DNA of 64,000 nt from Candidatus Thorarchaeota archaeon (GTDB lineage: Archaea; Asgardarchaeota; Thorarchaeia; Thorarchaeales; Thorarchaeaceae). The notes beneath the pieces are model-generated. The model did no database searches, had not been told where the DNA came from, and saw only the letters and a list, made by a program, of their open reading frames with translations. The stretch spans positions 12,282 to 76,281 of the forward strand of contig PRDJ01000042.1 in assembly GCA_003345555.1 (NCBI GenBank), in the 5' to 3' direction. This document shows positions 20,907-58,387 of the stretch, one piece after another; the first letter of the stretch is position 1; each line of letters begins with the position of its first letter. The position numbers and the translations under genes are program-made.

Positions 20907-20914
20907 GGCGCATC

Positions 20915-24372: not shown

Positions 24373-26196
24373 ATGCGCTTGGCCAAGCTGGCACCGCGTC
24401 TTGTGAATGGGCTTCTTGTTCAAGTCTCTGTGCTTGTCGTTCTTTATGTCACAGCCGTGGTCTGGGTGCTGGTTTCTGGCGGCGTCGTACAGGCTTACGT
24501 TCCCCAATTGATTATTCTTTACGCTGCGTTCGCCATATTGACTGTGGTCTTCAGGCGCTCTGTTGTCGAGTACTTGCCGCTGCTGCTAGTGCTGCAATTC
24601 GGCATGTTGGTATGGACTTCGGTTTTCAATGCTGCAGTGGCAGACTACCTTTCCGGCGGAGTGTGGAACAGCAGAGGAGTTTGGCTGGGTAATAGACCGA
24701 TCGACTTCTTCGGTTACACAATTCAACTTCGTTTGGAGGGTTATACCGACTACAGCTTCTTCTACGTTCATTGGGGACACAACATGTTGAATGGAGTGAT
24801 GCCATACAGTGACGCATTCGGTTACCTCGTAATGAACGGAATCACAAACAGAAATGGACTGTACATATTTCCTCCGTTCTACGCGTATCTCTATGCGGCT
24901 GGCATAGCCCTTCCTGTTGATGATTGGGGCATAGGACTACTGATTGCCTGTTTTGGATACCTGACTGTTCTGCCCGTGTACGGTCTTGGACGCGAGCTGT
25001 CAGCGAATAGGCATGTTGGGGAAGTTGCAGCTCTGACTTACCTGCTAAGCCCGAGTGTCCTCTATCATACTGATTTCGTATGGTTGAATCCCTCACCCTT
25101 CATCTTCTTCTTCTTTGCGGGGTTCTACATGCTGGTCCGAGGCAATCGACATACCGGCACGATCCTCATTTTGGTCTCGGCATTGTTCAAGCAGACGGCT
25201 TGGTTCTTGGGAATCCCCCTCGTTGTGTACCTTCTCATGAAGCCTCGGGTCGCCTCGCGGGCAAATCCTCCGGGCAACAGAAGTATTCTGGGTTCTGTTC
25301 GTGAGATACTAAGAGGAATTTCCAATGCACTCGATATACGAGGCTTCATGTTCAGTGTAGTGCTAGTAGTCATATTCGTCGGAGCGGTGATGTTTCCGTT
25401 CCTCTTGGCTCAACCGTATGTGCTGCTATTCATGAGCCTGGCCTCTGGAGGCTTTAGGCTCGAGTCATTCACTGAGCTTCCTTCATACGGAAGTCCAGCG
25501 CGGCTTCAAGTACTTCCTCTAGTTGCCTACCTTTCGATACCTGAGTCTAATCGGTCTGAACCTCTTGGTGTTTTTCTTCTATGGTTAACCCAGACTCTTG
25601 ATAACCTTGTCTTCAATGATTTCCTTCTGATCCTGGGGGTTGTGATATTCAGCGGTGTGATGCTGATTGAACCTAGGCGCGTTGGACGCGAGAAGCAGTA
25701 CATGAGGCGTCTGCTTTTCCTCACGATGATAATGATGCTTTGGGTCAATCTGACAGGACCGAGGGGTGTCTACAAATACTATTTCACATTGTTCGCGCCA
25801 TTTTTCTCACTTTTCTCATCTGCCCGAATCGTTGAGAGCAAGGAAGAGCATGTGCCATTTTCTTGGTCAATGCTCTGGCTTCCAGTCTCGATGAGTGCCA
25901 TGATTCTTATTCCAAGTCGCTATGTATACTTATTCGGAGTTCTTTTAATTATGATTGCATACTTGCTTGTTCATAGCGTAGGCACTTTCTGGTATATACT
26001 GACAACCCCGACTCGGTACATGTCAGATAGACTCAAGGGACACATGCATCATACGGCTTTTCTAGCGTCCGTCTTGGCGAGCAAAGTGAGAGGACTCAAC
26101 AGAGAAACAAGCCCATTGTCCGAAACCCTGCCTGATTCGGAAGCCATGCGTGAATCCGAAGGCAGAGGAGGCATGTCTAATGTTGGAAAGCCTTAA
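24373..26196 (+). CDS. GT-C fold integral membrane glycosyltransferase, PIG-M/DUF2029-like (paralog 1)
   Basis: 607 aa, at least 10 TM spans. First-loop motif GYTDYSFFYVHW...GVMPY (similar to the PIG-M YTDIDY...SPY motif), WLNPSPF, FKQTAWFLGIPLV. Confidence 0.5.
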   Translation: MRLAKLAPRLVNGLLVQVSVLVVLYVTAVVWVLVSGGVVQAYVPQLIILYAAFAILTVVFRRSVVEYLPLLLVLQFGMLVWTSVFNAAVADYLSGGVWNSRGVWLGNRPIDFFGYTIQLRLEGYTDYSFFYVHWGHNMLNGVMPYSDAFGYLVMNGITNRNGLYIFPPFYAYLYAAGIALPVDDWGIGLLIACFGYLTVLPVYGLGRELSANRHVGEVAALTYLLSPSVLYHTDFVWLNPSPFIFFFFAGFYMLVRGNRHTGTILILVSALFKQTAWFLGIPLVVYLLMKPRVASRANPPGNRSILGSVREILRGISNALDIRGFMFSVVLVVIFVGAVMFPFLLAQPYVLLFMSLASGGFRLESFTELPSYGSPARLQVLPLVAYLSIPESNRSEPLGVFLLWLTQTLDNLVFNDFLLILGVVIFSGVMLIEPRRVGREKQYMRRLLFLTMIMMLWVNLTGPRGVYKYYFTLFAPFFSLFSSARIVESKEEHVPFSWSMLWLPVSMSAMILIPSRYVYLFGVLLIMIAYLLVHSVGTFWYILTTPTRYMSDRLKGHMHHTAFLASVLASKVRGLNRETSPLSETLPDSEAMRESEGRGGMSNVGKP

Positions 26197-27700
26197 TCGC
26201 GCTCTTCGTAGGATTGTCCTAATCCTGTTCAAATACAGGATACTCCTTGTGATACTCATATCGGCCTGTCTTGTTTGGGCGTGGATATTCAATCTGGCCG
26301 CGGCGGATTTCATTGAAGGTGGGTCGAGGCCTTTCAGAGCGGCCTGGAACGGATATGGCGCAATCAACGTCGCGGGATTGACGATTCCGCTGAACCTTGA
26401 GGGTTGGGCTGACTACGACTACTACTACATCAGTTGGGCAGACCAGTTTCTAAGAGGCGTTCAGCCTTACACAACCGAATTCGATTATCAAACGATTGGT
26501 GGCACAGTATACAACATTCCGTATTTCTTTCCCCCTCTGTTCTTGTATCTGTGCGCATTCGGGAGGGTGCTGCCGATTCAACCGTTTGGAATCGGATTGG
26601 TCATTACAGTGTTTGGCTATCTCACGGCTTTGCCGATATACGGGGTCGGAAAGTATCTCTCCGACAACCCGCATGTGGGAGAAATCGCAGCTGCAACGTA
26701 TCTCTTCAATCCAATTGTGCTTTATCACACAGTGGTTGATTGGCTAAATCCAGCTCCGTTTGTCTTCTTTGTCATGCTTTCCATCTATCTGATAGTCTCT
26801 GGCCACAGGGTCTCCGGTGTCCTTGCAATGGCGACCGCGGCAATGTTCAAGCAGACGGCGTTCGTGCTAGCCATACCTCTAGTCTGCTTCTTCCTGAGAA
26901 GACCTCCTCAGAAAGATGTGGCTCCCGAAACCGAGGCTCTTCAGGAGGGAAAGAGGTCCCTTCCGAGCGACAAGCTCGACTTGCGAAGTTTCTCAAAGAT
27001 CGTTCTGGTTGTTCTATTGTATGCGGTCGCCCTTTCTGTTCCATACTTGTTAGACCCGCTGAACTATGGATACTTCATCTTTCAGCGTGCAGGTGCCTTT
27101 CTATTGACCGATTTAGCGACACCTCCCGGCGACGGGCTGCCTATGACCTTGGCTGTCATTCTCATTGTGATGCATGCACCGGAGTGGTTAATCCAAGGTG
27201 TGAATCTAATGACGTATTACTCGGTCGGTCTCATCCTCGGGCTTTTGCCCATCCTCGTACAGATGCTTATCGAAATGAAGGATGACCGCAATCTGACCGG
27301 ATATTGGCGAAGGATGCTCTATCTCACATTATTGCTCCTACTCTGGATTCACCTCTTCTCGCCACGGGGAATCTACAAGTACTACCTAGTCGCGCTTGTA
27401 CCCTTCTTCTCGATCTTGTCGTCAACGACTATGTGCTCCAAAGAGTCTGGCGAATTTCGTCCGTCACTCCCGATGGTCGTTAACCCATTTGTGATCAGTA
27501 TACTGATTATTGTGCCCGACAGAACCATCTACATGCTATACTTGATACTAATCCTTCTATCATATGTCTTCTACAGACAGCTTGGCTTGGCATACAGACT
27601 TCTTGGCCGGACCTTCAGGCGAGGTATGAACGGCCTTCGCCACCTACGAGGGCATTCGGAGCCTCCAAGTTCGTCGAGTACTCTTGCGGAAGGAAGATGA
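26150..27700 (+). CDS. GT-C fold integral membrane glycosyltransferase, PIG-M/DUF2029-like (paralog 2)
   Basis: 516 aa with matching motifs ADYDYYYISWADQF...GVQPY, WLNPAPF, FKQTAFVLAIPLV, RGIYKYY. The annotated start overlaps paralog 1 by 47 nt; the true start may be 26180. Confidence 0.5.
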   Translation: MNPKAEEACLMLESLNRALRRIVLILFKYRILLVILISACLVWAWIFNLAAADFIEGGSRPFRAAWNGYGAINVAGLTIPLNLEGWADYDYYYISWADQFLRGVQPYTTEFDYQTIGGTVYNIPYFFPPLFLYLCAFGRVLPIQPFGIGLVITVFGYLTALPIYGVGKYLSDNPHVGEIAAATYLFNPIVLYHTVVDWLNPAPFVFFVMLSIYLIVSGHRVSGVLAMATAAMFKQTAFVLAIPLVCFFLRRPPQKDVAPETEALQEGKRSLPSDKLDLRSFSKIVLVVLLYAVALSVPYLLDPLNYGYFIFQRAGAFLLTDLATPPGDGLPMTLAVILIVMHAPEWLIQGVNLMTYYSVGLILGLLPILVQMLIEMKDDRNLTGYWRRMLYLTLLLLLWIHLFSPRGIYKYYLVALVPFFSILSSTTMCSKESGEFRPSLPMVVNPFVISILIIVPDRTIYMLYLILILLSYVFYRQLGLAYRLLGRTFRRGMNGLRHLRGHSEPPSSSSTLAEGR

Positions 27701-28891
27701 TTAGGAGGCTTGCTTGTCAAATTCCTCTCTCTTCTCAGCAAGTCTCCTGTCTAGGCTAGCTAACCGTTCGTCCAGTTTTTCAACCTGCTCATCATAGCTC
27801 TCTCTTGTCATAGTGCCAGTGGAGAGTTTCTGTTCTATGTGATCTCGGAGCTGATGAACTGACTTGATTTCCTTCTCGATAGAATCGATGTCAGCTATTA
27901 TCTCCTCGATTCTGTTCTCTTCCTCGGATTTGAATTGTTTCGCGGGCACCATGAGTCCGAACTGTTGTTGTGTCTTTTCCGCAAAGTCTTGGAATTGACC
28001 TCTGAGCCCTTCGATGCTCTTCTCGATTCTCCCCGTGTTCTCTGTGAGTCTCGCTATGTCTTTTTGTAAATCAATGACTGCATTGACAAGTCTGCGGAGT
28101 GTCTTGTCTATCTCGGCTTCGAAAGTGACCTGTGCGCCCTCACCAGCCGAGGGTCTTTCCTCTGCGGCCTTCGCTTGTGCCGCAACCACACGGCTAGGCC
28201 TTGTCAGTCGGTCTTCTCCTGTAAGCCATCTGAAACAGTTGAGTGCGAAGGTTGTGTTACCGTCGTTCTTCAAACCTCCCCCTCTTCGGAATATCTCATA
28301 GGTCCCGATGCAGATGACCCTCCCCCGCTCGAAGTCTGCGGCAGCTATGACAGGCTGATTTGGCGGATCCGCAGCCCCCGATGTTGCTGCTATGGCCATT
28401 GCCTTTCCCGAAAGCCTCAAGGTGCATGATGATGGCAGCAAGATATTGTTGATTCCTTCGGTTATTGAATGTTGGACGAAGCCTGATATCATGAGCAGAG
28501 TTGGAAGACCTGCGTTGTCTCTTTCATCCTTGACTGCCGTGTTGTCGAACTCGATACCAAAGTTCTTCGACAACAGGCTCATATTGGTCATGAGCCCCTT
28601 GTCGCCGCCAGAGAGCGACAGCAACATCAATCCGCCGCCGTCCTGAACAAACTTCTTGATGGCATCAATTTCATTGGACCGAAGCTTGGAGCCATTCGGG
28701 CAGGCAAACACGAGAGCGTCAATTCCTTCCAGCTTCTTGGGCATTATCATATACTCTGTATATGCCTCGACGTCATAGTCATTGTCTTTGAGAAGCTGAC
28801 CGAGCTGTGAATAAGTCGTGTCTAAGCGTCCTCTCTCGTTCTGAGTCTGGTCAAATGCAATTCGCTTTCTCCTCGCGCTCACGTTGCGCAC
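27701..28891 (-). CDS. hypothetical protein: ThuA/GATase1-like N-terminal domain plus C-terminal coiled coil
   Basis: 396 aa; IDALVFACPNGSKL...GGGLMLL pattern, then a long heptad-rich tail. Confidence 0.35.
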   Translation of the reverse strand: MRNVSARRKRIAFDQTQNERGRLDTTYSQLGQLLKDNDYDVEAYTEYMIMPKKLEGIDALVFACPNGSKLRSNEIDAIKKFVQDGGGLMLLSLSGGDKGLMTNMSLLSKNFGIEFDNTAVKDERDNAGLPTLLMISGFVQHSITEGINNILLPSSCTLRLSGKAMAIAATSGAADPPNQPVIAAADFERGRVICIGTYEIFRRGGGLKNDGNTTFALNCFRWLTGEDRLTRPSRVVAAQAKAAEERPSAGEGAQVTFEAEIDKTLRRLVNAVIDLQKDIARLTENTGRIEKSIEGLRGQFQDFAEKTQQQFGLMVPAKQFKSEEENRIEEIIADIDSIEKEIKSVHQLRDHIEQKLSTGTMTRESYDEQVEKLDERLASLDRRLAEKREEFDKQAS

Positions 28892-30005: not shown

Positions 30006-32843
30006 TTGGTCAAGGAAAAGAAGCCCGCACACGGGGATCAGTCCTCAGTAGAGGATTTCCTGGGCCCCGAACAGCGGCGCCGACGAACTGAAGATTCAAG
30101 CGTGGGGTCTTCGGATGTGGAGCATCGCGGCGCGCCTGACGATCCACCTGTTTCTCACAAGTCTACCTCCAGTCCGCCTCAGGCAGAAAATGATGTTGAA
30201 TCTGAAGAAGAGAAGTATGCCGATGTAGTGGAGCAACCCGAAGTTGAGGTTGTAGAGGAAACAGAAGCTGTAGCAGAGATAAGAGCCGGCGATCGGGACA
30301 CGCCTCGTAACCTTCCACCGTCTTTCCTGCTCTCAATAGACTATGCGGGCCAGCAAAAGAAAGCAGTCGCGCGCTTGTACGACACAACCACGAAGCGATT
30401 GCTATTTTGGTTCGACAACAAGGGTCACCTGCCGTATTGTTACACTGACCTTCCTCGTCAGGCCGTGGAAAAGATAGACCGAGTCAGCAAGAGCCCCGGG
30501 TTTGTTAGGGCTGAAGCCGTCAAAATGCTTGACTTGCTTCAAGACCAGTCGAGAGACATGACCAAGGTAATTGCGGACGACCCACTCAGCATAGGTGGCC
30601 GAGCTGGCTCAATAAGAGAACAACTTGTCAAAGACGGTGTGAGCCATGCTTGGGAGGCGAACATACGGTACCGCAACTGTTACACGTACGACACTCGCGT
30701 CGTGCCTGGACTCGTCTACAAGATTGAGAATGGTGACTTGATTCCCTGCGCACCGAAGATAGATAGCAAGCTGATTGACGAGTTCAAAAGAGTCGTTCAG
30801 GATGAAGCAGGTCTTGATCAGGTACTCTCGGAGTACGCTCCGATGTTCTTCACCGAAGTTCCTGACATTCATCGTGTTGCGGTAGACATTGAAGTATTCA
30901 CACCCGTCAAGAACCGGGTTCCCGATGCGGCAACTGCACGTTATGAAATCATAGCAATTGGTCTGTCAGACAACGAGGGATACAGCAAATGCTTCGTTCT
31001 AAGACGCAAAGATCACCCCGAAGGCACGAAGGACAAGGATTTCCCCGGAAAGCTGGATATTGTCTACTTCGATCGAGAAGTTGACATGCTTCTCGAAGCT
31101 TTCAAGGTGATTGACACTTACCCCATAGTGCTGACATTTGTGGGGGATGCCTTTGACCTCAACTACATGTATCATCGAGCCGAACGTCTTGGTATTGACA
31201 TGAAAAGACAATGTCCAATAACGCTGGGCAAGGATGTGGCTTTGCTCAAGAAGGGCATTCATGTCGATCTCTATCGTTTTCTGAAGAACCCCTCAATCAG
31301 GCTGTACGCTCTGTCGGGAGCTTATGAGCAGAACAATCTCGACTCAGTTGCAAAGGGTCTGCTGGGAGTTGGAAAGCTTGGGATAAGCAGCGACATATCC
31401 AGCGTTCCGTACGTTGAGCTTGCTCACTATTGCTGGCAAGATGCAGATATCACGCTAAGGGTCACACAGTATGAAAACAACCTCTTGTTAAGACTCATTG
31501 TTCTACTGATGCGTATATCCCGTCTGTCTATGGAAGATGTGACTCGACAAGGAATATCATCGTGGATTCAATCGCTTTTCAGACAGGAACACCGGACTAG
31601 GGGATGTCTGATACCCCGTCAGGTTGACATTGAGCTAGCAAAGTCTTCCGAAGCGCAGACTGCCGCCGTTATCAAGGACAAGAGATTCAAGGGCGCGATT
31701 GTTATCGAACCAGTTGCAGGGGTACACTTCAATGCGGTAGTTCTGGATTTCGCAAGTCTGTATCCCACGATAATGAAGACCCACAACATCAGTTACGAGA
31801 CCGTGGATTGCCCCCACGAGGAATGCAAGAATGCAACTGACAACAGAGTCCCGGAGACCAATCACTGGACATGCAAGAAACGCCGCGGAATGATTAGTCA
31901 GACGATAGGCTTCTTCCGAGATACCAGGGTGAAATGGTTCAAGGCTAGGAGCAAAGACAAGTCCCTTGATGAAAAAACGAGAAACTGGTATTCTGTGGTT
32001 GAAAAAGCTCTCAAGGTTTTCGTTAATGCATCGTATGGTGTGACAGGGGCTGAGCACTTTGAGCTGTTTTGCATGCCCGCCGCAGAAAGCGTTACTGCCT
32101 ACGGTCGCGATGCAATAATGAGGACTAAGGCGAAGGCGGAATCGATGGGCATCTCTGTGCTATACGGTGACACAGACTCTCTCTTCATGGACAACCCCAC
32201 AAAGGAACAGCAGGAACAGCTAATCCAGTGGTCGCGCAAGGAGCTGGGCATCGATCTTGAAGTTGACAAGACATACAAGTATGTGGCTCTCTCTGGAAGA
32301 AAGAAGAACTACATCGGGGTCTACAAATCAGGCGCCGTCGAGGTGAAAGGTCTTACTGGCAAGAAACGCAACACTCCTGATTTTGCTCAGCACGCATTCA
32401 GGCATATGCTCGAAGTTCTGAGCCGCGTTGACAGTCCTGACGGTTTCGAGACTGCCAAGGCTCAGATTCGTGAGGTCGTCAATCAAGTCATCGACAGGCT
32501 GGAAGGTAGGGGTGAACCTTATACTCCCGACGATGTAGCCTTCAGAGTACAGATTACCAAGCCGCTTGAGCAATATGGGAAGACGAAACCACAACATGTG
32601 CGCGCTGCTCTCATGATGAGGAATGCGGGTTATGATGTCCCTGCAGGGACCATAGTGAGTTACATCAAGACAAAGGGCGAGGACGGAGTACTGCCGGTCG
32701 AGCTTGCTCAAGGAACGAGCTACTGGTTGGACAAGGACAAGTACATTGAGACACTGCACTCTGTGTTCGAACAGGTACTTGATTCCGTAGGGCTTGAGTT
32801 TGAAGAGCTCATGGGTTTCACAACGCTTGATCAGTTCTTCTAG
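30006..32843 (+). CDS. polB: family B DNA polymerase with an approximately 100-aa acidic N-terminal extension
   Basis: Exo I VAVDIEV; motif A DFASLYPTIM; motif B KVFVNASYGVTG; motif C VLYGDTDSLF. Confidence 0.9.
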   Translation: MVKEKKPAHGDQSSVEDFLGPEQRRRRTEDSSVGSSDVEHRGAPDDPPVSHKSTSSPPQAENDVESEEEKYADVVEQPEVEVVEETEAVAEIRAGDRDTPRNLPPSFLLSIDYAGQQKKAVARLYDTTTKRLLFWFDNKGHLPYCYTDLPRQAVEKIDRVSKSPGFVRAEAVKMLDLLQDQSRDMTKVIADDPLSIGGRAGSIREQLVKDGVSHAWEANIRYRNCYTYDTRVVPGLVYKIENGDLIPCAPKIDSKLIDEFKRVVQDEAGLDQVLSEYAPMFFTEVPDIHRVAVDIEVFTPVKNRVPDAATARYEIIAIGLSDNEGYSKCFVLRRKDHPEGTKDKDFPGKLDIVYFDREVDMLLEAFKVIDTYPIVLTFVGDAFDLNYMYHRAERLGIDMKRQCPITLGKDVALLKKGIHVDLYRFLKNPSIRLYALSGAYEQNNLDSVAKGLLGVGKLGISSDISSVPYVELAHYCWQDADITLRVTQYENNLLLRLIVLLMRISRLSMEDVTRQGISSWIQSLFRQEHRTRGCLIPRQVDIELAKSSEAQTAAVIKDKRFKGAIVIEPVAGVHFNAVVLDFASLYPTIMKTHNISYETVDCPHEECKNATDNRVPETNHWTCKKRRGMISQTIGFFRDTRVKWFKARSKDKSLDEKTRNWYSVVEKALKVFVNASYGVTGAEHFELFCMPAAESVTAYGRDAIMRTKAKAESMGISVLYGDTDSLFMDNPTKEQQEQLIQWSRKELGIDLEVDKTYKYVALSGRKKNYIGVYKSGAVEVKGLTGKKRNTPDFAQHAFRHMLEVLSRVDSPDGFETAKAQIREVVNQVIDRLEGRGEPYTPDDVAFRVQITKPLEQYGKTKPQHVRAALMMRNAGYDVPAGTIVSYIKTKGEDGVLPVELAQGTSYWLDKDKYIETLHSVFEQVLDSVGLEFEELMGFTTLDQFF

Positions 32844-41439: not shown

Positions 41440-42177
41440 ATGGACGAACCACTGCAATCCGCGCTCTACGCATCAATCGCTACACTGGACCAGCTCAAGA
41501 AAATGTACGACATGGGCGTTGTTGATGTCAGGTCGTATGAAAGGGAGTCTGAAGCGCTAATAACAGAGGTTCGGAATTGCATCGAACAGATGCGGAGAAC
41601 CGGTCTTGACGTTGGGAACTTCGTGGGTCAGGCCCGGATATCGGAGTCGTTTCCCGAAGCGTCGAACATGCTGGGGCTGTACGGACGAGACACGCGGCAG
41701 CCAGGTATAGGGATGACAACTGATCAGTACTTCGACTACATCGGACTTGCCGTCTTAGATGTGGCTACCGCGAATTCCTCGAAAGGGCTGATGGGACTTG
41801 CGGAACTCATTGTCGAGGTCGTGCGCCTGCTGCCAGAGCTCAAGTCTGTCAGCTACAATGACGTGATCGAGGCAGTGAACCGCGTGTCTCAACATGGATT
41901 GATACCGGGCATTCGGACGCTTAGGGGCGGAGTCAAAGTTGTGGAACTGCGTCCGTTAGAGCTGCGTCGTGACCAAGCAGATGTAATCAATGCTGCCGCC
42001 ACCAAGGGGTACGTTTCCATTGAAGAGCTCATGATGCAGCTCAAGTGGTCAGAGGACCATGCACGTCAAGTTCTCTCCAGTCTGGTCGATGCTGGCATGG
42101 CAGTGGCAGACATACGGTTCTCGACGGGTGGCCGCTATTACTTCCCGGGTTTAAGACCTAGAGATAGTACAGTGTAG
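41440..42177 (+). CDS. ESCRT-II Vps22/EAP30-like tandem winged-helix protein (tentative)
   Basis: 245 aa; helical N-terminus and two WH-like segments; context with Vps25-like and Vps4. Confidence 0.4.
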   Translation: MDEPLQSALYASIATLDQLKKMYDMGVVDVRSYERESEALITEVRNCIEQMRRTGLDVGNFVGQARISESFPEASNMLGLYGRDTRQPGIGMTTDQYFDYIGLAVLDVATANSSKGLMGLAELIVEVVRLLPELKSVSYNDVIEAVNRVSQHGLIPGIRTLRGGVKVVELRPLELRRDQADVINAAATKGYVSIEELMMQLKWSEDHARQVLSSLVDAGMAVADIRFSTGGRYYFPGLRPRDSTV

Positions 42178-42225: not shown

Positions 42226-42939
42226 TCAGACCACTGCTAGTATTGCGCCTTTCTTCGAGTCAACCCATTTTGCCAATCCTTTGTCAACCATTATCTGCAT
42301 GATTCGATGCAAGTCTCTTTCAGGGAGCTTCGAGAAGTCTTGGCCGGATTCCTGCACGACAATTGACTGCACATCTAGGCGCAGTTTTCCTGTCTTTATT
42401 GCCCAACGGTATATGATGTCACCCCATTCCTCGAGGGGTCGCCAGTAGACTCGAAGCTGTCTTTTCTTCTCGTCGAGCCATTCTCCAACGTCCTTCTTGA
42501 CCAATGATTCACCTATGAATCTGAAGGCGTCGACCTTTCCAAGGATGTCACTGAACGGTTTCTCCTTCACGAAGGTTGACACTGAAAGAACATGTATGCT
42601 TTTGAACTCGGTCCAAATCATAAGATAGTCTGACCACTCTTCCGCCCACATTTCTATGTCTTTTTCTGCAGGTGGAATATGATACATCCATTCAGCTTGG
42701 TTTACGTTTCCCCACTGCGGGGCCGGGAGCTCTAGGACCTGTGAGGGCGCAGACTCAGGGACGATTTCAGTCTGAATCGACTCGAGCTCCTGAGTCTGCG
42801 AATCCTCTTCAGCTTCAGTTTCGGTAACATCGACAAGAGTGTCGGTCTTAGGTGTCTCTTTGCCAACAGAAGCATCAGACGTTGGTTTGGGGGTTGGCTT
42901 CTGTCGCTCCTTTTCTTTCCGGCGTTCCTTCACTTCCAA
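42226..42939 (-). CDS. ESCRT-II Vps25-like protein
   Basis: C-terminal tandem WH with the Vps25-like signature YWRPLEEWGDIIYRWAIKTG; start 3 nt after the vps4 stop. Confidence 0.55.
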   Translation of the reverse strand: MEVKERRKEKERQKPTPKPTSDASVGKETPKTDTLVDVTETEAEEDSQTQELESIQTEIVPESAPSQVLELPAPQWGNVNQAEWMYHIPPAEKDIEMWAEEWSDYLMIWTEFKSIHVLSVSTFVKEKPFSDILGKVDAFRFIGESLVKKDVGEWLDEKKRQLRVYWRPLEEWGDIIYRWAIKTGKLRLDVQSIVVQESGQDFSKLPERDLHRIMQIMVDKGLAKWVDSKKGAILAVV

Positions 42940-42942
42940 TCC

Positions 42943-44172
42943 CTAAGACGCCTCCCCCCATTCGATATACTTCCTTACGTCTTCTGGAGTTGTACCGGGT
43001 CCAATGTTCTCAATAGCCCGCAGAAAGTCGTCCCGTGAGACGGGCCGTAGTTCGAGTCGTGCGCGGTCGCTATCGAGCTTTCCCACGCGCTGTAGGTCTC
43101 TTATTGGTTCCATCGCGGCTTCCCGACATACCACACTAATATCCCGGCCACTATAACCGTCGGTCAAATCAGCAAGTTCTCCGAAGTCGACTTCCGGGGA
43201 CAGTTCAATGTCTTCCATGTGAATCTCGAATATCTTTCTCCGTGAGGTTTTCCTTGGCAAGGGGATGTGAATCTTCTTCTCAAATCTTGATCGAAGAGCG
43301 AAGTCCAGTTCCCATGGAAGATTGGTAGCACCGATTACAGTAACCCTATCATCGGGATGAGTCGCCAATCCCTGCAGCTCAGTCAATAGCTGAGTCTTGA
43401 GTCGTCTCTCCCCGCCAACATCATGTCCCGTTCTTGAGATTCCAACAGAATCAAGCTCATCCATGAAGATAACGGAGGGCTGACTCCTCCTCGCCATTTC
43501 AAAGAGGGTCATGACGAGCTTCTCTGACTCGCCGAGCCACTTGCTGACGATATTTGCGGCTGAGACATTGAAGAACGTTGCATGCACTTCAGAGGCCACA
43601 GCCTTTGCTATGAGAGTCTTACCACATCCTGATGGTCCATAGAACAGAATGCCCTTCCAGGGCTGCCTCGATTTTCCCTTGAAGAGTTCAGGATGTTTCA
43701 TTGGAGACACAATGGCTTCTTGAATTACCTGCTTTGCATCGTCCAATCCTGCAACCTCGGACATTTTCAAATCCGGTCGTTCAGTAAGAATCGTGTCAGC
43801 AATCATATCCTGAAGGTGTCTCATGTCTTCGTTGTCGTCGCCTGTTTCCGAAGTCCTTCCGGATGGCAGTGATGGCTCTCCCCTGTCTATAGAAAATGTG
43901 GCGGGAATACTTGGAATCGTCGGTCGTTCCGCTTGCCTTGTCTTAAGGCCTGAGATGTATCTTACCCGATCTACACACTCTTGGGCCCTGCTCAGGTAGT
44001 GCTTCTGCAAAGATGGAAGGGATGAGGAATTCGAGAGCTTGATGAGTATCATGCTTGCCTTTAGATAGTCACTACAAGCCTCTTTCTGGAGTCCTCTCCT
44101 GTCCAAATCTATTGCCTTTTCGAGCAAAGCCTTGACTCCAAGGTCGAGGCGGTCAGCGTCTGTTCCTGACAT
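42943..44172 (-). CDS. vps4: Vps4-like AAA ATPase (MIT domain plus AAA)
   Basis: N-terminal MIT-like helices; Walker A GPSGCGKT; Walker B VIFMDELDS. Confidence 0.85.
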   Translation of the reverse strand: MSGTDADRLDLGVKALLEKAIDLDRRGLQKEACSDYLKASMILIKLSNSSSLPSLQKHYLSRAQECVDRVRYISGLKTRQAERPTIPSIPATFSIDRGEPSLPSGRTSETGDDNEDMRHLQDMIADTILTERPDLKMSEVAGLDDAKQVIQEAIVSPMKHPELFKGKSRQPWKGILFYGPSGCGKTLIAKAVASEVHATFFNVSAANIVSKWLGESEKLVMTLFEMARRSQPSVIFMDELDSVGISRTGHDVGGERRLKTQLLTELQGLATHPDDRVTVIGATNLPWELDFALRSRFEKKIHIPLPRKTSRRKIFEIHMEDIELSPEVDFGELADLTDGYSGRDISVVCREAAMEPIRDLQRVGKLDSDRARLELRPVSRDDFLRAIENIGPGTTPEDVRKYIEWGEAS

Positions 44173-44268: not shown

Positions 44269-44955
44269 TTGTTACGAAGGCTTAAAGGCGGAGGTCTCGC
44301 ACAACCCACAGAAGTTCATCATCAGGACATGGTGAGGTCGTTGGGTACATTCAGGAAGGCTATGACTTGGGGTCGCAAGAAGCCGGACGTTGCAGAGGTA
44401 ACCAGTCAGCTTAGAATCCTAGGCAAAGAGCTCGAGCGAGAGAGAAACAGGCTCGAGAAGGAAGAGACTGAGACCAAGGCTCGAGCGGTGCGGGCTCGGA
44501 AAGAGGGCCATGTCGACGCCTACAAGACCTACGCAGTAGAGATGATCCGGTTCAGGAAGTATGCTTTGTCTGTCGACAAATCGCGGCTTCACCTACTGAG
44601 GGTACTCGGCCATATCGTTCATGCTCAGTCGGCCGCTAAGACGAGCTTGGCAGTAGAAAAGGTCGCCAAGATTCTCGGGATACTAGGTGATGCAAAAGAC
44701 CCAACAAAGGTTGTTCGGAGTCTTGATGAGATTACTCGAAGACTGGACGCAATGGAAATCGAAAGCGGGATTTCTGACGAAGCCTTTGACTCTATGAAAG
44801 ACAGCAAGGTGACGTCAGAAGAGCTGGCCGCAGCACTGCAGGAGATTGATGCCGAGGCTGGGGCTGCAAAGGTCGTCTCGCGGGCCGGTCCAGCTACAGA
44901 GGCTGAGAAACTCGAAGAAGAGATCAAGTTGCTAGAGAAGGAACTTGGTGTCTAG
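44269..44955 (+). CDS. ESCRT-III (Snf7/CHMP family) protein
   Basis: 228 aa; basic helical N-terminus, acidic C-terminus with MIM-like EEEIKLLEKEL; divergent from vps4. Confidence 0.6.
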   Translation: MLRRLKGGGLAQPTEVHHQDMVRSLGTFRKAMTWGRKKPDVAEVTSQLRILGKELERERNRLEKEETETKARAVRARKEGHVDAYKTYAVEMIRFRKYALSVDKSRLHLLRVLGHIVHAQSAAKTSLAVEKVAKILGILGDAKDPTKVVRSLDEITRRLDAMEIESGISDEAFDSMKDSKVTSEELAAALQEIDAEAGAAKVVSRAGPATEAEKLEEEIKLLEKELGV

Positions 44956-44956
44956 A

Positions 44957-46597
44957 CTAGCGCCCAAAGACCTGACGATTCCCAGAAGCCGTTTCTAGTC
45001 TTTTTCTCGTTTCAAATGAATCTCGCATGAGTCCCTTGTATCTCCTGATGAAATCCTCTGGGACCAGCTGACCGTTCCTCAATAGACGAACCGTTTCTCT
45101 AGCGGCATCCTCAATCGTTATCGCGTCTCTTCTGAGTCCCATTGTTTCTGCAGAGTCGGGAACCGGAGAAGGCATGCCACCTGCACCGAACAAGCCGCCG
45201 AGGTCTCGGCCGAGTCTGTCGTGATACTGCAAAGGAGCTGTGCGGGCTCCGTTGTCAGATGCGTTTCCGAATGGATAGTACGAAGCCGATCGCCGGTCGT
45301 ATGGTCCGTATCCAGCAGATGCTTGTGTCCCGATGTCAGCTTTTCCACCTGAACACATGAGCGAGTAGGCGAGTTCTTCTACCTTGAGCCTGACATCGCT
45401 AATGCTCACGTCGGTCTGTCCGAGCTTTCTCGTTCGCTGAAGGTCTGACTGCATATACTTGTCGAATTTTCTGGCGATTTCTACATAATCTGGCAGAACA
45501 CTCTCTGTCTGATCGCTGCAAGTTATCTTGATATCGCCCTGCTTCATTCTCAGGACTGTTCTCTTTCTCAGCCTGCCATCCTCTTCTAAACCCTTCATGT
45601 AAGCAAGGGGTATATCGAAGACTATGTCGGTTTTCTTTCGGAGTCTTCCGGTTTCAGCAATAAAGACGAGCCTCTTGTTGGTTATGTACAAGGTGCCAGT
45701 GGCCTTGTCATTCTTCACGAAGTCACTGCCTGCGATTCTGATGTCGGGTAACGCACAGACTGGCAGTTCGTTTACAGACAGTTCTGCAGTCTCATAGAAC
45801 CCCGCGAATTGCTTCCTATAGTAGTCCAGTCCGTCCAGCTGCTGTTCGATATCTACTAATGTCAGCCTCGCCTCTTCGATTGCGTCATCAATATTCTTCC
45901 GGTATTGACCCACAAGATGGGTGACACGATTCGTTACTCCGCCTACAAAGGGGAACTGATCGGCAGACCATGCGCTGGAATCGAGGAGCCCCTTGGTCTC
46001 AGCAGCCATTTGCCTCGAGACTATCTCCGCTTGGCTTGTCACTCTGTTCTTGATGGCAGGGATCTCCATCTCGATGTTCTCAATCTTCTCTTCCAGCCAG
46101 CGATAGTGAAGGAAATTCGCCATCCTGAGAGAAACAAGAAGCCTCTTGGCTGACATCAGCTGGTTGGTGAAATCGCGCAGGCGTGTGTATCCATAGTGGA
46201 GTGTGATTATGGCATGACGCAGGTCTTGAGCCAGCACCTTTCTTTTGTCCTCTACAGACACCGTGTGTGTGGAATGGCACCTGGGACAGATTTCTTCGAT
46301 TCGCTTCCCAGCACTCAGCTCTCGAGAGCCGCATTCCGGGCATTTCTCGAACTTCTGCCCTGGGGCGGGAGTGCCAAGGCCGTGGTGGCAATTACTGCAT
46401 ACAATGTGCTCGCTTGACTTGGTCTCAAGGCATTCCAAGCACAATACCTCTCCGCAATCCTCACAAAGATGCGTGGCTCTATTGCTCTTGCAGACTTTAC
46501 AGAGCTGGGTAGAGGATTCGTTACTCAACTGGGTGCCTCCGAACATCTGGGCTTGCATATTGTACTGAGGAGTCATGGATAATTGGCTATGTATCAC
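44957..46597 (-). CDS. B-box/treble-clef zinc-finger protein with coiled coil and GRAM/GLUE-like PH domain
   Basis: 546 aa; CKVCKSNRATHLCEDCGEVLCLECL...CSNCHH; CPECG...CPRCH; GTLYITNKRLVFIAE GRAM/GLUE-type strand. Confidence 0.5.
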   Translation of the reverse strand: MIHSQLSMTPQYNMQAQMFGGTQLSNESSTQLCKVCKSNRATHLCEDCGEVLCLECLETKSSEHIVCSNCHHGLGTPAPGQKFEKCPECGSRELSAGKRIEEICPRCHSTHTVSVEDKRKVLAQDLRHAIITLHYGYTRLRDFTNQLMSAKRLLVSLRMANFLHYRWLEEKIENIEMEIPAIKNRVTSQAEIVSRQMAAETKGLLDSSAWSADQFPFVGGVTNRVTHLVGQYRKNIDDAIEEARLTLVDIEQQLDGLDYYRKQFAGFYETAELSVNELPVCALPDIRIAGSDFVKNDKATGTLYITNKRLVFIAETGRLRKKTDIVFDIPLAYMKGLEEDGRLRKRTVLRMKQGDIKITCSDQTESVLPDYVEIARKFDKYMQSDLQRTRKLGQTDVSISDVRLKVEELAYSLMCSGGKADIGTQASAGYGPYDRRSASYYPFGNASDNGARTAPLQYHDRLGRDLGGLFGAGGMPSPVPDSAETMGLRRDAITIEDAARETVRLLRNGQLVPEDFIRRYKGLMRDSFETRKRLETASGNRQVFGR

Positions 46598-46723
46598 ACT
46601 GGTATTAGTCGATGCATGCTGGTGTTTGGCTAGCTAGTGCACTTGGTACTCTCCAAATGGATTGTCCCGTCCGGATTGGTTATATTACGGGAAGCAAGTT
46701 TCGGAACACAAGGCGAATCACGC

Positions 46724-48109
46724 ATGAAGACTCTCGCGCAGGCTGCAATTGAAGCCGCTCTCAAGACCGGAGCTGCTTTTGCAGACATCAGGATAGAAAA
46801 CACAGTTACAACAATCATTGAAATCGATGATGGAGTCACAAAGAGGTCGATGGCCGCCCAGTTGAAGGGGGCGGGAATAAGAGCATTCTTCGACGGAGCT
46901 TGGGCATTCGGTCAAACCACGGACCTAACTCCTTCTGCAATGCGAAGTACTGCGGCATCTGTTGCCAAGATGGCTATTGCCACGCACGGCAGAGTCGCAG
47001 AGAAGTTCAGCATTGACGGACCTGCCTTCGAAGACAATGTCCGTCTCAAGGTGAAACGCCCACTCCAAGATGTGGGTGCGGCGGAGAAGGTTGCATTGGT
47101 CAAGATGATAGATGAGCAGGCTCGAGGTTATGACAAGAGGATAGCAAATGCCCGGACTACGTATGGAGACCTGTGGACCGAGCTGTACGTAGCCAATTCA
47201 TTGGGTACGAGTGTTTACATCGAGAATTCGCTGCCGCGCATTGTCAGTATGGTAACAGCCAAGGACGGAGCCAACAGACAGCGGGCGTTCAAGTCAGCGG
47301 GGGCAAGGGGTGGTTTCGATGAGATGCAGACCGAACACGCTCAAACAATCGGCGAAGAGTCTTCCAAGTTGGCTGTTGAACTCCTGTCTTCTGTCGCTGC
47401 AAAGGGTGGAGTCTATGATGTCATCATGGATCCAGTTTTCAATGGAGTAATGGTGCATGAAGCGTTTGGTCATGCTTGCGAGGCAGACAACTGGCCAGCT
47501 CATACCACGGTACTAGAAGACAAGGTGGAGAAGGTTGTGGGGCCTGAACACCTGAATTTGAGTGATGATCCTACCCTTGAGGGGATGCGTGGTTCGTTTC
47601 CTTACGACTGGGAAGGGACTAAGACCCGAAAGAGACATCTTGTCAGACGCGGCGTACTTACGGATCTACTGCATGGCCTTGAGTCTTCCAGTCGGCTAAA
47701 CATGGAACCAAACGGTGCGGCAAGGGCCCAATCGTTCATGAGTGAGCCGATTCCTCGGATGAGCAACACGTTCATGGAGCCCGGCGACTGGCGTGTTGAT
47801 GAGCTGATTTCAGACACGCGCCAAGGAATCCTGCTTTGCGACTTCAACTATGGCTACACGGAGCCATCAAAGGGTCAGTTCATGTTTCAGGCGAGCTATG
47901 GATATATGATTGAAGGTGGAGAAGTTGGCCAGATTGTGCGCGATGTATCAGTTGCAGGACAGATTCTTGATGTACTTCCCAAGATAGATGCCGTGGCGAA
48001 CGACTTCAGATTGGAAGCAGGGAGTTGCGGCAAGAACGCTCAGCTGGTTCCGGATATGAGTGGCGGACCTCACGCTCGGGTACGGTCAGTTCCGGTAGGA
48101 GGAATGTAA
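46724..48109 (+). CDS. tldD: TldD family metalloprotease
   Basis: HEAFGHACEAD HExxxH motif; start taken at the internal Met of the ORF-track entry. Confidence 0.8.
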   Translation: MKTLAQAAIEAALKTGAAFADIRIENTVTTIIEIDDGVTKRSMAAQLKGAGIRAFFDGAWAFGQTTDLTPSAMRSTAASVAKMAIATHGRVAEKFSIDGPAFEDNVRLKVKRPLQDVGAAEKVALVKMIDEQARGYDKRIANARTTYGDLWTELYVANSLGTSVYIENSLPRIVSMVTAKDGANRQRAFKSAGARGGFDEMQTEHAQTIGEESSKLAVELLSSVAAKGGVYDVIMDPVFNGVMVHEAFGHACEADNWPAHTTVLEDKVEKVVGPEHLNLSDDPTLEGMRGSFPYDWEGTKTRKRHLVRRGVLTDLLHGLESSSRLNMEPNGAARAQSFMSEPIPRMSNTFMEPGDWRVDELISDTRQGILLCDFNYGYTEPSKGQFMFQASYGYMIEGGEVGQIVRDVSVAGQILDVLPKIDAVANDFRLEAGSCGKNAQLVPDMSGGPHARVRSVPVGGM

Positions 48110-48110
48110 G

Positions 48111-49460
48111 ATGACGAAGCAGCTCACGGACCTAGCAGAGAAGACAGTCAAAGTCGCAGAACGATTGGGCGCTGAGCAGGCGGAGGTCTACATCGGTTCC
48201 ACACGGTCTTTCTCGATTGATGTTGAGAACAATGCTATCAAGAGCGCCGCCGAAAGAAGAGACGCTGGGTGCGGCATTCGATGCGTGTTTGGAAAGAAGA
48301 TAGGCTTCGCATACGTAACCACACTAAACGGTGATGACATCGAAAATGCCTTGCGCAGGTCCATTTCTTTGGCAAAGGCATCAGTCGCTGATCCCGACTT
48401 CGTGAGTCTGCCCGGTCCTGAGTCACGCTACCCCGTTGTGAAGGACTTGTTTGACAAGGGCGTAGAAGGCTTGACTGCTGATGAAGCTGCTGACCTTATC
48501 GCAGGATGTCTAGATGCTGCCAAGGAGCCTCTGCATGGAAGGAAGTATGCCATTCAGGCAGACTTGAGCACTTCTTCGGGTAGCAGAGCAATCGCCAACT
48601 CTCTCGGAGTGTCACAGTCTGCAGAATCGACTTCTATAACAATGTACAGCGAGGTGACAATCAAAGAACAGGCGGACCAAACGTCAAGTTACGAGTATCT
48701 GGTGTCGCGTGCACTGAGGGAGATTAATCCTGAGTGGATCGGCAGGACCGCTTCGGAGAATGCATTGCGCAATCTCGGAGCGAAGACTATCGAAGGCGGC
48801 GACATGTCAGTAATCATGACACCTCTGGCCGTAAGCATGGTTGTCGGATCAGGTTTTGCAGATGCCGTCAACGCAGAAGAGGTTCAACAGGGACGTTCCT
48901 ACATCTCAGATGCAATTGGCTCGGAAGTTGCATCGGATGAATTACATATCGTGGATGATGGTTTGCTCAAGGGCGGAGTAGGGTCACGAGCATTTGATGC
49001 AGAAGGTGCCCTTTCTCAACGGACTCAGGTGCTGAAACGCGGTGTGTTGCGGAGTCTGCTCCATAGCTCTTACACCGCTAACAAGGATCGGGTTCCCAAT
49101 ACCGGGAATGCTTCTCGGCCTTCCTACGCTGGCATACCAATGATTGCCACTACCAACTTCGTGATTGAGCCTGGGCGCGGCATGCTTGAAGATCTCGTCT
49201 CAGAAGTGAAGAAGGGCGTCCTCTGCATGAATACATTCGATCGACCGAACATGACCACGGGCGATCTGAGCGCAATGGTGAGCGAAGGTTTCTACATAGA
49301 GGACGGCGAACTCAGACAAGGAGTCAAGAGTACTCTCATAGGCATCAACATGCGTGACCTTCTCAAGAGGGTCATTCGTGTCGGTGCAGACACGAGAGCA
49401 ACAGGCCGCATGGTGACCCCTTCCATCGTGATTGATTCTGCCAAGATAACCTCCGGATGA
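48111..49460 (+). CDS. pmbA: PmbA/TldE family protein
   Basis: 449-aa TldD/PmbA-fold paralog immediately after tldD. Confidence 0.7.
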   Translation: MTKQLTDLAEKTVKVAERLGAEQAEVYIGSTRSFSIDVENNAIKSAAERRDAGCGIRCVFGKKIGFAYVTTLNGDDIENALRRSISLAKASVADPDFVSLPGPESRYPVVKDLFDKGVEGLTADEAADLIAGCLDAAKEPLHGRKYAIQADLSTSSGSRAIANSLGVSQSAESTSITMYSEVTIKEQADQTSSYEYLVSRALREINPEWIGRTASENALRNLGAKTIEGGDMSVIMTPLAVSMVVGSGFADAVNAEEVQQGRSYISDAIGSEVASDELHIVDDGLLKGGVGSRAFDAEGALSQRTQVLKRGVLRSLLHSSYTANKDRVPNTGNASRPSYAGIPMIATTNFVIEPGRGMLEDLVSEVKKGVLCMNTFDRPNMTTGDLSAMVSEGFYIEDGELRQGVKSTLIGINMRDLLKRVIRVGADTRATGRMVTPSIVIDSAKITSG

Positions 49461-52878: not shown

Positions 52879-53712
52879 ATGTCAGACCGCCTTTCCATTC
52901 ACGGCATCTGGTTAATTGAACGCCATACGGGTAGGAATCTGATAGCCCGGGCGTATACCGGTGTCTCCATCGATATGGACTTGATCGCACCATTTCTGTC
53001 AGCGACTCACACTTTCATAAACCGCGCAGCGAACGAGACTCTGAGAACAATCGACACTGATACACATAGGTACGTGTGGGCTGCAAATGATGAGCTGTTG
53101 TTTGTGATGGTAATATCCAAGGGCGCACGCACAGGACACATGCGGTTCCTTCTCGATTATGCACTGAATGAGTTCATGCACAACGAAGTCCCTGAGGGAA
53201 TGGACCTGCCCACCTTCTTGAAACAATGGGAAGGAAACCCAGTGAGCTTCGAGCGGTTCGCCAGATTCGTGGATGAGCTGGTCTCTCAGTATGAACAATC
53301 AGGCGATAGTCTCGTGGCCGGAAAGACGATGGACTGTCTTGAGGTGCACAATCATATCTTCAGGGCACTAATGGAAGTAAAGGTCGACAAGAGGACCCGC
53401 AAGAAGATGGTTGAGGAAATCAAAGCACGACTTCGGCCGCTTGTAGAAACACACCCCTTCTTGGCTGTGGTGCCTGTGGATGATGCAGGCATTGAAGTTC
53501 TCAACATTGACGTATACAGTGTGGAGTACAAAGCCCTCCGAAGCGCGCTGGAGAGCGTGTTCCAGGTGGTCGCCGAGGTGATAAGGAACGTTGCGGGTGA
53601 GGAACCGTATCGGAACATGATCTTCGACCATGCAATGCCCTATGTCAAGAACGACATCGAACGCCTCCAGACCTATGCGATTCTCGACGATATTGTACGA
53701 TACCTATTCTAA
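52879..53712 (+). CDS. longin/roadblock-like domain protein with helical C-terminal extension (tentative)
   Basis: 277 aa; N-terminal 120 aa fit a longin-type alpha-beta-alpha profile (GIWLIERHTGRNLIARAY...ELLFVMVISK). Confidence 0.35.
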   Translation: MSDRLSIHGIWLIERHTGRNLIARAYTGVSIDMDLIAPFLSATHTFINRAANETLRTIDTDTHRYVWAANDELLFVMVISKGARTGHMRFLLDYALNEFMHNEVPEGMDLPTFLKQWEGNPVSFERFARFVDELVSQYEQSGDSLVAGKTMDCLEVHNHIFRALMEVKVDKRTRKKMVEEIKARLRPLVETHPFLAVVPVDDAGIEVLNIDVYSVEYKALRSALESVFQVVAEVIRNVAGEEPYRNMIFDHAMPYVKNDIERLQTYAILDDIVRYLF

Positions 53713-57622: not shown

Positions 57623-58387
57623 TTAATGGGCCTGCCAGAAGGTCCAACCCAGGACTATCATACATGTCAGTGCGATTAGGAATGCCCACACCGTGGACGT
57701 ATCGTGCGCCTCTCTTATACCGAATGTCAGAAGGAAGCCCACCCAGACAAATGATGCCGTGGTCATATAATCCAAGATAAGCCAGACATCCGATCCATAG
57801 ATGGACGCAACTACATTAGGCAATACTGCCCCCGGTCCAATGTCATATGTCGGCAGGACTGCAAGCAAAACGAAGAATCCTATGACTCTGAAGAGCAACA
57901 CTGGCATCATACTGTACCCAACTACTGAAAGCGTCTTGGTCATGCGCCCCGTGCCCCCTGCGACTTTGAAGGCGATATGGGCGAATAGGGTACCCACGAT
58001 TAGATAGATCATTCCAATCATGATGTTGGATACAATGCTTGCCAATGCCGTTGCATAGTACATGCCGGCATCTGTAGTATCCAAGATGGACACGGTCGCC
58101 GTGGCTCCCGAGGTAACATTGGTCACGACAACGACAGTGAGGTGCGATGATATCGCTAGGAAGAAGCCCATGAGCAACAGTGCATTCATCATTATTATCA
58201 TGAAGGGGCCAGCACCGTCGGGTCTCTGAGCGATATCTCGGTAGGTCAGTGCAGGTCTTCTGATTACCCCCCATAGACGCTCAATAGTTCCCATCGCACG
58301 GACTTCTGGTGCCTCAGGTCTCTTCAGCAGAGGCAACACTCTCTCTAGAGCCTCTTCAGAAATGACCTGTCTACACACTGGACACAC
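57623..58387 (-). CDS. Yip1-domain membrane protein with N-terminal zinc ribbon
   Basis: 254 aa; CPVC at the N-terminus, then five TM spans in a Yip1-like arrangement. Confidence 0.4.
   Translation of the reverse strand: MCPVCRQVISEEALERVLPLLKRPEAPEVRAMGTIERLWGVIRRPALTYRDIAQRPDGAGPFMIIMMNALLLMGFFLAISSHLTVVVVTNVTSGATATVSILDTTDAGMYYATALASIVSNIMIGMIYLIVGTLFAHIAFKVAGGTGRMTKTLSVVGYSMMPVLLFRVIGFFVLLAVLPTYDIGPGAVLPNVVASIYGSDVWLILDYMTTASFVWVGFLLTFGIREAHDTSTVWAFLIALTCMIVLGWTFWQAH

Follow-up and report, generated by a model that had tools for sequence, protein, structure and literature searches.

A Thorarchaeota Znr_CC_PH_SB protein encoded beside a cluster of ESCRT genes

We analysed a 64,000-nucleotide stretch of DNA from Candidatus Thorarchaeota archaeon (GenBank assembly GCA_003345555.1, contig PRDJ01000042.1, positions 12,282 to 76,281 of the forward strand; hereafter the window, whose own numbering is used throughout), concentrating on an open reading frame at 44957..46597 on the minus strand. 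This frame, 546 codons long when counted from a GTG, encodes what we identify from its domain composition as a Znr_CC_PH_SB family protein of Thorarchaeota. Its stop codon occupies positions 44957-44959, one base off the last base of an open reading frame on the plus strand (44269..44955) for an ESCRT-III protein, a component of the ESCRT (endosomal sorting) complexes. The two genes are convergent, on opposite strands with their 3′ ends one base apart, as stated in the original prediction made from the DNA letters. A word-indexed search returned 165 homologues of ∼500–560 residues, nearly all labelled Thorarchaeota, and a scan of the GTDB species representatives recovered the gene at full length, with 44–83% identity, in 75 species-level Thorarchaeota genomes, in all of which it is single-copy and syntenic. 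Because of these 165 homologues and the full-length copies in 75 genomes, we take the open reading frame to be a real, conserved gene.

The Znr_CC_PH_SB family corresponds to the Asgard orthologous group (asCOG) cog.011556, described as combining three Zn ribbons with a coiled coil, PH domain and steadiness box (Makarova 2024, mBio, PMC10936438). According to the same authors, eukaryotes lack it, it is likely to be ancestral in Asgard archaea and likely to be a component of ESCRT-I, and its PH domain is expected to be membrane-associated. All four elements were found in the window protein: three zinc sites from six CxxC pairs at the N-terminus, a coiled coil that comes after these modules and before the PH region, a PH-like domain and a C-terminal steadiness box. 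The Lokiarchaeum GC14_75 member of cog.011556, As_004-p_01543, lies in the gene context L35Ae, X, MetE, Vps20 (Makarova Table S2, PMC10936438). One homologue in our set, P0133, matches the window protein at E = 3.4e-29 and has the context L35Ae, X, MetE, ESCRT-III, which is that of the listed Lokiarchaeum gene; homology to As_004-p_01543 is thus indirect, running through P0133 and the common four-gene context. The window protein is also 55% identical over 505 residues to ThorAB25_08990, which is listed as ‘SB’ among the yeast two-hybrid proteins of Hatano 2022 (Nat Commun, Supplementary Data 1, PMC9192718), and the legend to Supplementary Figure 8 of that paper names RING, CC (coiled-coil) and PH domains. 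A literature search found no experimental work on the family later than these two papers, a PSP paper among the results being unrelated. We conclude from these sequence comparisons that the window protein is a Thorarchaeota Znr_CC_PH_SB member with an already published architecture. The subunit had been proposed as novel, a description that does not hold given the two publications and the cloned Thorarchaeota orthologue.

The protein probably begins downstream of the GTG from which residues are numbered here. A GGAGG sequence (46540-46536) precedes a TTG codon (46528-46526) with a 7-nucleotide spacer, so that the probable start region covers 46526..46540 on the minus strand. This TTG is residue 24 of the GTG-start frame and coincides with the aligned start position of most homologues. 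Given the position of the GGAGG and the start of most homologues, we favour the TTG at 46528, which would give a product of 523 residues with all 12 cysteines retained. An internal methionine, in the motif MCEDCG, serves as the start in 24 of 189 aligned homologues, in L020 (Thor AB_25) and in the ThorAB25_08990 two-hybrid construct. Starting there drops the first CxxC pair of zinc ligands (the window region concerned being 46526-46597), and caution is needed with the published two-hybrid construct, which differs in this respect from the likely window start, and with the many database entries that likewise lack the first pair.

The 12 cysteines (C33, C36, C45, C48, C53, C56, C67, C70, C86, C89, C104 and C107) show little or no variation, even among relatives of only ∼20% identity, and we regard the array as real and under selection. 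The full set is present in 145 of the 189 aligned N-termini, the remainder being mostly truncated gene calls. Residues 33–70 (46388..46501, minus strand) form a putative eight-cysteine binuclear zinc module with the spacing C-x2-C-x8-C-x2-C-x4-C-x2-C-x10-C-x2-C, which is B-box/RING-like by sequence. Residues 86–107 (46277..46342, minus strand) form a four-cysteine zinc ribbon, C-x2-C-x14-C-x2-C, with invariant cysteines and a beta-hairpin in the model; in the AlphaFold2 model the N-terminal region carries zinc-knuckle hairpins. When a confident model of the zinc modules was used for a structural search, this ribbon superposed on the zinc-ribbon structures Trf and DUF35 to within 1.5–2.1 Å. A zinc ribbon had been expected after the cysteine array, and it is indeed there.

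The nature of the first module is less straightforward. In type 1 B-boxes the first six ligands are spaced C-x2-C-x8-C-x2-C-x4-C-x2-C. The first six cysteines of the window protein have this spacing, and the final pair, x10-CxxC, is RING-like and not His-based. A family profile of the zinc modules matched the PDB sequences of the RNF4 RING (E = 1.6e-7), the TRIM2 B-box (3.6e-5) and the TRIM28 B-box (2.8e-4), and also TRIM21. Pfam zf-B_box was detected in 13 of 47 diverse members (E ≤ 0.01) and an ANCHR-like B-box in 6 of the 47, and precomputed PF00643 matches exist in three homologue clusters. Members scored one by one reached 17–21 bits with zf-B_box, below the curated cut-off of 24.1, and on the window protein itself no Pfam RING or B-box model rose above threshold and zf-B_box gave no match at E ≤ 0.01. 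The structural search did not confirm a RING or B-box fold: RING matches had root-mean-square deviations (rmsd) of ∼16 Å with a probability of ∼0.2, and the zinc-ribbon matches were the only ones that superposed. Evidence on how the ligands are paired comes from the two truly degenerate N-termini among the 189 (P0199 and P0192), in which cysteine pairs 1 and 3 are both gone while pairs 2, 4, 5 and 6 are kept. Joint loss of pairs 1 and 3 is the pattern expected of an interleaved cross-brace (1+3, 2+4) rather than of tandem ribbons (1+2, 3+4). The first two zinc sites are probably interleaved, although the losses in P0199 and P0192 may be a single evolutionary event. The B-box/RING-like cross-brace originally proposed is thus partly supported: sequence profiles agree with it and the pair losses favour cross-braced ligation, but the fold search does not confirm it.

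The full-length AlphaFold2 model of the window protein has a predicted local distance difference test score (pLDDT) of 77. After the zinc modules it contains three long helices (residues 115–159, 166–201 and 212–264; 45806..46255, minus strand; pLDDT mostly 86–95), which correspond to the central coiled coil that had been predicted and which we call the stalk. A PH-like domain of seven strands and a C-terminal helix follows at residues 272–380 (45458..45784, minus strand), the strand unit with its capping helix being modelled at residues 279–380 and two more helices at 386–415; the translation of the PH-like region includes the strings GTLYITNKRLVFIAE and DIVFDIPLAYMKGLEE. The top Foldseek matches against the PDB were all PH-containing proteins. 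The MTMR2 GRAM-PH domain aligned with an rmsd of 2.8 Å over 108 columns (E = 3.8e-4), the PH-like domain of Lam6 also superposed well, and the Vps36 GLUE domain (2CAY) gave a template modelling (TM) score of 0.58 and an rmsd of 3.7 Å. The modelled fold is thus PH-like and nearest to GRAM and GLUE structures, in agreement with the GRAM/GLUE-type PH fold first suggested. Full-length searches also gave RhoGEF DH-PH structures as the top matches (E = 6e-5), with rmsd values of 17–25 Å and TM ≤ 0.25; these were rejected because they reflect an order of helices followed by a PH domain and not a DH domain.

Sequence profiles place the PH-like domain less precisely. A profile of the region built from 29 diverse members had the Vps36 GLUE domain as its best PDB sequence match, a weak one (E = 0.034). 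Among the 47 diverse members, Pfam bPH_3 was found in 22 and GRAM in 7. The window protein scored 13.7 bits against GRAM (cut-off 23.6) and so does not belong to a GRAM/GLUE family by sequence, and the Pfam Vps36 GLUE model PF11605 matched only the PH region of the distant member P0143 (22 bits; cut-off 24.1). Thorarchaeota members keep two basic clusters (G317-R-L-R-K-K and G341-R-L-R-K-R) without change; the deep family retains them in part, and they would fit a membrane-binding surface.

Residues 418–478 (45164..45346, minus strand) make up a disordered, poorly conserved linker (pLDDT < 50, variable alignment columns), and the length of the segment between the PH-like domain and the C-terminal element varies from 48 to 651 residues across the family. 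Beyond it lies a helical hairpin of the Vps23/TSG101 steadiness-box type (residues 483–537; 44987..45151, minus strand), recognized by profile matches, modelled with pLDDT ∼95 and conserved throughout the deep family. The hairpin profile matched the yeast Vps23 steadiness box in the ESCRT-I core structures 2F66, 2P22 and 2CAZ at E = 2e-7, human TSG101 at 2e-3 and VPS37B at 9e-3. The steadiness-box profile matches the window protein at 4e-17, Pfam Vps23_core is found in 7 of the 47 diverse members, and the hairpin is present in 50 of the 64 representatives that have both the zinc and PH modules. On visual inspection of its motif the hairpin had seemed SHOCT-like, a reading that gave way to the clear Vps23 match. 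The hairpin, which the original prediction did not mention, is the most diagnostic ESCRT feature of the protein and groups it with ESCRT-I, not with generic feeder subunits. Elsewhere in the window, the C-terminal coiled coil of an IFT52 GIFT-domain protein (27701-28891, E = 8.9e-16), whose gene adjoins one for a PIG-U-like (GPI transamidase subunit) protein (26150-27700, E = 4.9e-11), weakly matches the same steadiness-box profile (domain E = 0.0066).

The genes on the downstream side encode ESCRT proteins. The convergent ESCRT-III gene (44269..44955, plus strand) is of the Snf7 family (Pfam Snf7, 5e-13) and was assigned by paralogue typing to a ‘group X’, as the orthologue of ThorAB25_09000. 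Beyond it lie genes for Vps4 (42943..44172, minus strand; MIT, AAA and Vps4_C domains by Pfam), for the ESCRT-II protein Vps25 (42226..42939, minus strand) and for a Vps22-like EAP30 protein (41440..42177, plus strand). The last of these matches Pfam EAP30 at 5e-13 and, weakly, the VPS28 N-terminal model at 2.6e-3, and carries at its N-terminus (residues 7–64) a Vps28-type steadiness box that makes it a candidate partner for the steadiness box of the window protein. Such a steadiness box was reported with 99% HHpred probability on KXH75178, the Vps22 orthologue of SMTZ1-45 (Makarova Table S3, PMC10936438). On the other flank are TldD and PmbA/TldE (46637-49460), divergent from the gene, and then ArgRS and TFB. 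The whole block, ORF277-TFB-ArgRS-TldE-TldD-gene-Snf7-Vps4-Vps25-Vps22-AspRS, is frozen in the 75 Thorarchaeota genomes. A 277-residue protein encoded at 52879-53712 (plus strand), detected in 36 of the 75 Thorarchaeota loci, weakly matches longin domain 1 of FUZ/MON1/HPS1 (E = 1.8e-4, below threshold).

As synteny within Thorarchaeota is uninformative, distant homologues in unrelated contexts were sampled, and 10 non-Thorarchaeota contexts extended far enough downstream to be used; Loki-type members, when scanned against metagenomes, yielded only 4 loci, of which 2 were informative. A convergent ESCRT-III gene was found no more than 2.4 kb away in 8 of the 10 contexts. The Snf7-family gene was directly convergent in four (P0124, P0125, P0145 and L087) and one or two genes off in the other four (P0133, P0143, P0215 and L089). 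The functional link to ESCRT that had been proposed from the window is upheld by these contexts. In one of them, that of P0125 (L078, 4978-9739), a 1013-residue HerA/DUF87 ATPase and a 355-residue protein separate two ESCRT-III paralogues.

When the neighbouring ESCRT-III genes were typed against the reference sequences of Hatano 2022, they fell into two orthologous groups. The non-Thorarchaeota neighbour always belonged to the group holding Lokiarch_16760, ThorAB25_07240 and HeimAB125_14020 (group Y), and in L076 a group Y gene is followed by an ESCRT-III gene of the other group. In Thorarchaeota, only the other group, which clusters with Vps4, still adjoins the gene. We also noted, on comparing the references in Supplementary Data 1, that the ESCRT-IIIA and ESCRT-IIIB labels of Hatano 2022 do not mark orthologues from one phylum to another: by sequence, Lokiarch_37480 (‘3B’) belongs with two ‘3A’ proteins, ThorAB25_09000 and HeimAB125_14010, and Lokiarch_16760 (‘3A’) groups with HeimAB125_14020 (‘3B’) and weakly with ThorAB25_07240 (‘3B’).

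Three distant family members from metagenomic contigs (Logan assemblies), P0143, P0214 and P0215, are ∼600–610 residues long and 64–100% identical to each other. They keep the zinc, coiled-coil and PH modules and have an above-threshold EAP30 domain (E = 1.8e-11) in place of the steadiness box. EAP30-fused members lie at L085 1641-3446 and at L086 1185-3002, with a convergent Snf7 gene one gene downstream. These fusions may serve as a Rosetta-stone link between the zinc–coiled-coil–PH module and ESCRT-II, and their layout resembles that of Vps36. Vps22 and Vps25 are reported to have close homologues in Asgard genomes, and full-length Vps36 to have none (Hatano 2022, PMC9192718). A more far-reaching proposal is that the module is an archaeal precursor of the Vps36 GLUE module, which would work through steadiness-box pairing with Vps22 in trans in most Asgard archaea, be fused to EAP30 as a ‘proto-Vps36’ in P0143, P0214 and P0215, and provide ubiquitin-independent entry to ESCRT in Thorarchaeota; we regard this as speculative and rather unlikely.

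The reading that we favour, and hold to be reasonably probable, is that the window protein acts as a single-polypeptide ESCRT-I-like adaptor, bound to the membrane through its PH-like domain and coupled by steadiness-box pairing to Vps22 and so to ESCRT-II, ESCRT-III and Vps4; this agrees with the published interpretation of the family. The PH-like domain, possibly with help from the zinc module, would dock the protein on a membrane whose surface is anionic. Its steadiness box would then join that of another protein, much as happens in the ESCRT-I headpiece of eukaryotes, the obvious partner in Thorarchaeota being the Vps28-type steadiness box at the N-terminus of Vps22, encoded four genes away. 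A membrane-recognition module would in this way be linked directly to ESCRT-II (Vps22/Vps25) and then to ESCRT-III and Vps4. Thorarchaeota are seemingly without ubiquitin, and the Thor protein set holds no Vps23, Vps28 or ubiquitin (Hatano 2022, PMC9192718). With ubiquitin, Vps23-UEV and Vps28 reportedly missing, the protein would be the only ESCRT-I-like upstream factor in this lineage and the signal that it reads would probably not be ubiquitin. The original prediction of a cargo- or membrane-recognition subunit feeding ESCRT-II and ESCRT-III therefore stands as to its domains and its ESCRT link, and the ubiquitin-binding role suggested by analogy with GLUE is doubtful, since ubiquitin and UEV proteins are reportedly missing from Thorarchaeota. 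Three observations weigh against the adaptor reading. No Pfam family reaches its curated threshold on the window protein, no ESCRT gene lies nearby in the remaining 2 of the 10 non-Thorarchaeota contexts (P0127 and P0129), and adjacency within Thorarchaeota had to be rejected as functional evidence, the syntenic block including tRNA synthetases and TFB as well as the ESCRT genes.

The protein might instead resemble CdvA, anchoring through its PH and zinc modules and recruiting ESCRT-III directly for division or scission, with no ESCRT-I/II cascade. In favour of this idea, the neighbour conserved best among Asgard lineages is a group Y ESCRT-III gene and not an ESCRT-II gene. Steadiness-box hairpins also resemble CdvA by HHpred (Makarova 2024, PMC10936438), and one of the 47 family members weakly matches Pfam CdvA, the only such similarity detected. 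Moreover, CdvA of Desulfurococcus amylolyticus is directly divergent from a TldD–TldE pair (Makarova Table S2, PMC10936438), so that the window gene holds a CdvA-like position relative to TldD/TldE, which could be coincidence or ancient synteny. However, Vps23, TSG101 and VPS37B are by a wide margin the best matches of the hairpin profile, and the fusions to EAP30 indicate ESCRT-II. The group Y ESCRT-III gene of Thorarchaeota, moreover, has been relocated, yet the window gene stays beside the Vps4/Vps25/Vps22 cluster. On balance we think a CdvA-like recruiter improbable, without being far-fetched.

Two further explanations start from the N-terminal cysteines. The RING/B-box profile matches, an order of B-box then coiled coil that recalls RBCC/TRIM proteins, and the word ‘RING’ in the Hatano legend would suit a TRIM-like protein that serves ubiquitin, or a modifier resembling it, as a ligase or an assembly scaffold, its closeness to ESCRT genes being secondary. 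We consider this very unlikely, as neither ubiquitin nor UEV/E2-type partners are reported to occur in Thorarchaeota, RING matches fail to superpose where zinc ribbons do, and the window protein stays below threshold for every Pfam RING and B-box model. Some homologues carry the JGI label ‘transposase-like protein’, and there are weak matches to Zn_Tnp_IS91, Zn_ribbon_ISL3 and the TFIIB ribbon, as for a zinc-ribbon protein that binds nucleic acid and has no role in membrane remodelling. Those matches span only the cysteine knuckles (E 0.2–0.6), no catalytic or DNA-binding domain accompanies them, 75 genomes carry the gene as a single copy in conserved synteny, and a PH-like domain and steadiness box are present. 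The domain content effectively refutes the transposase-like annotation, and we give this explanation almost no credence.

Other parts of the window hold genes of different kinds. A Yip1-domain membrane protein is encoded at 57623-58387 on the minus strand (E = 7.7e-21); in eukaryotes the Yip1 family is tied to Rab GTPases and vesicle trafficking. The regions 19143-24315 and 30006-32843 contain a gene cluster for HerA (DUF87), a Mre11-like phosphoesterase and Rad50/SMC, and a family B DNA polymerase, which are ordinary archaeal repair and replication genes.

The ESCRT systems of Asgard archaea are the best available model for the origin of the eukaryotic membrane-sorting machinery. As what would be the only ESCRT-I-like component of a lineage reported to be without ubiquitin, the protein is a candidate for ESCRT targeting that does not depend on ubiquitin, an idea that has already been published. 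To the published family the present analysis adds a likely start codon, the pairing with one particular ESCRT-III paralogue across Asgard lineages, evidence for interleaved zinc sites and the EAP30-fused relatives; otherwise the window protein is another orthologue.

Comparison with known systems shows how the domains of the protein are distributed elsewhere. With TRIM/RBCC proteins it has in common the spacing of the first six cysteines, as in type 1 B-boxes, and a coiled coil that follows, but the last ligands in those proteins are His-based where the window protein has x10-C-x2-C, and its host lineage is reportedly without a RING–E2 system. Crenarchaeal CdvA is a membrane-binding recruiter of ESCRT-III with a PRC barrel and, unlike the window protein, no zinc or PH domains. 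Yeast Vps36 has a PH-like domain of the GRAM/GLUE subgroup accompanied by zinc fingers, as does the window protein, with sequence similarity below significance. The fingers of yeast Vps36 are of the NZF type and inserted in the PH domain, whereas those of the window protein precede it and are not NZF; and the C-terminal element is EAP30 in Vps36 but a steadiness box in the window protein, in which Pfam finds no EAP30 domain. Vps23/TSG101 likewise has a C-terminal steadiness-box hairpin after a long helical stalk. It differs in possessing a UEV domain and a PTAP-binding region, in place of which the window protein has zinc modules and a PH-like domain (Pfam and PDB searches detected no UEV/UBC domain in it), and the stalk of the window protein is an intramolecular three-helix unit in the AlphaFold2 model, unlike that of Vps23/TSG101. 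With Znr_CC_PH_SB itself the protein agrees in domain order, phylum-level distribution and ESCRT neighbourhood, and nothing essential differs; where Makarova described an N-terminus of three Zn ribbons, the cysteine pattern of the window protein and the loss of pairs among its homologues point to an interleaved arrangement of the first two sites.

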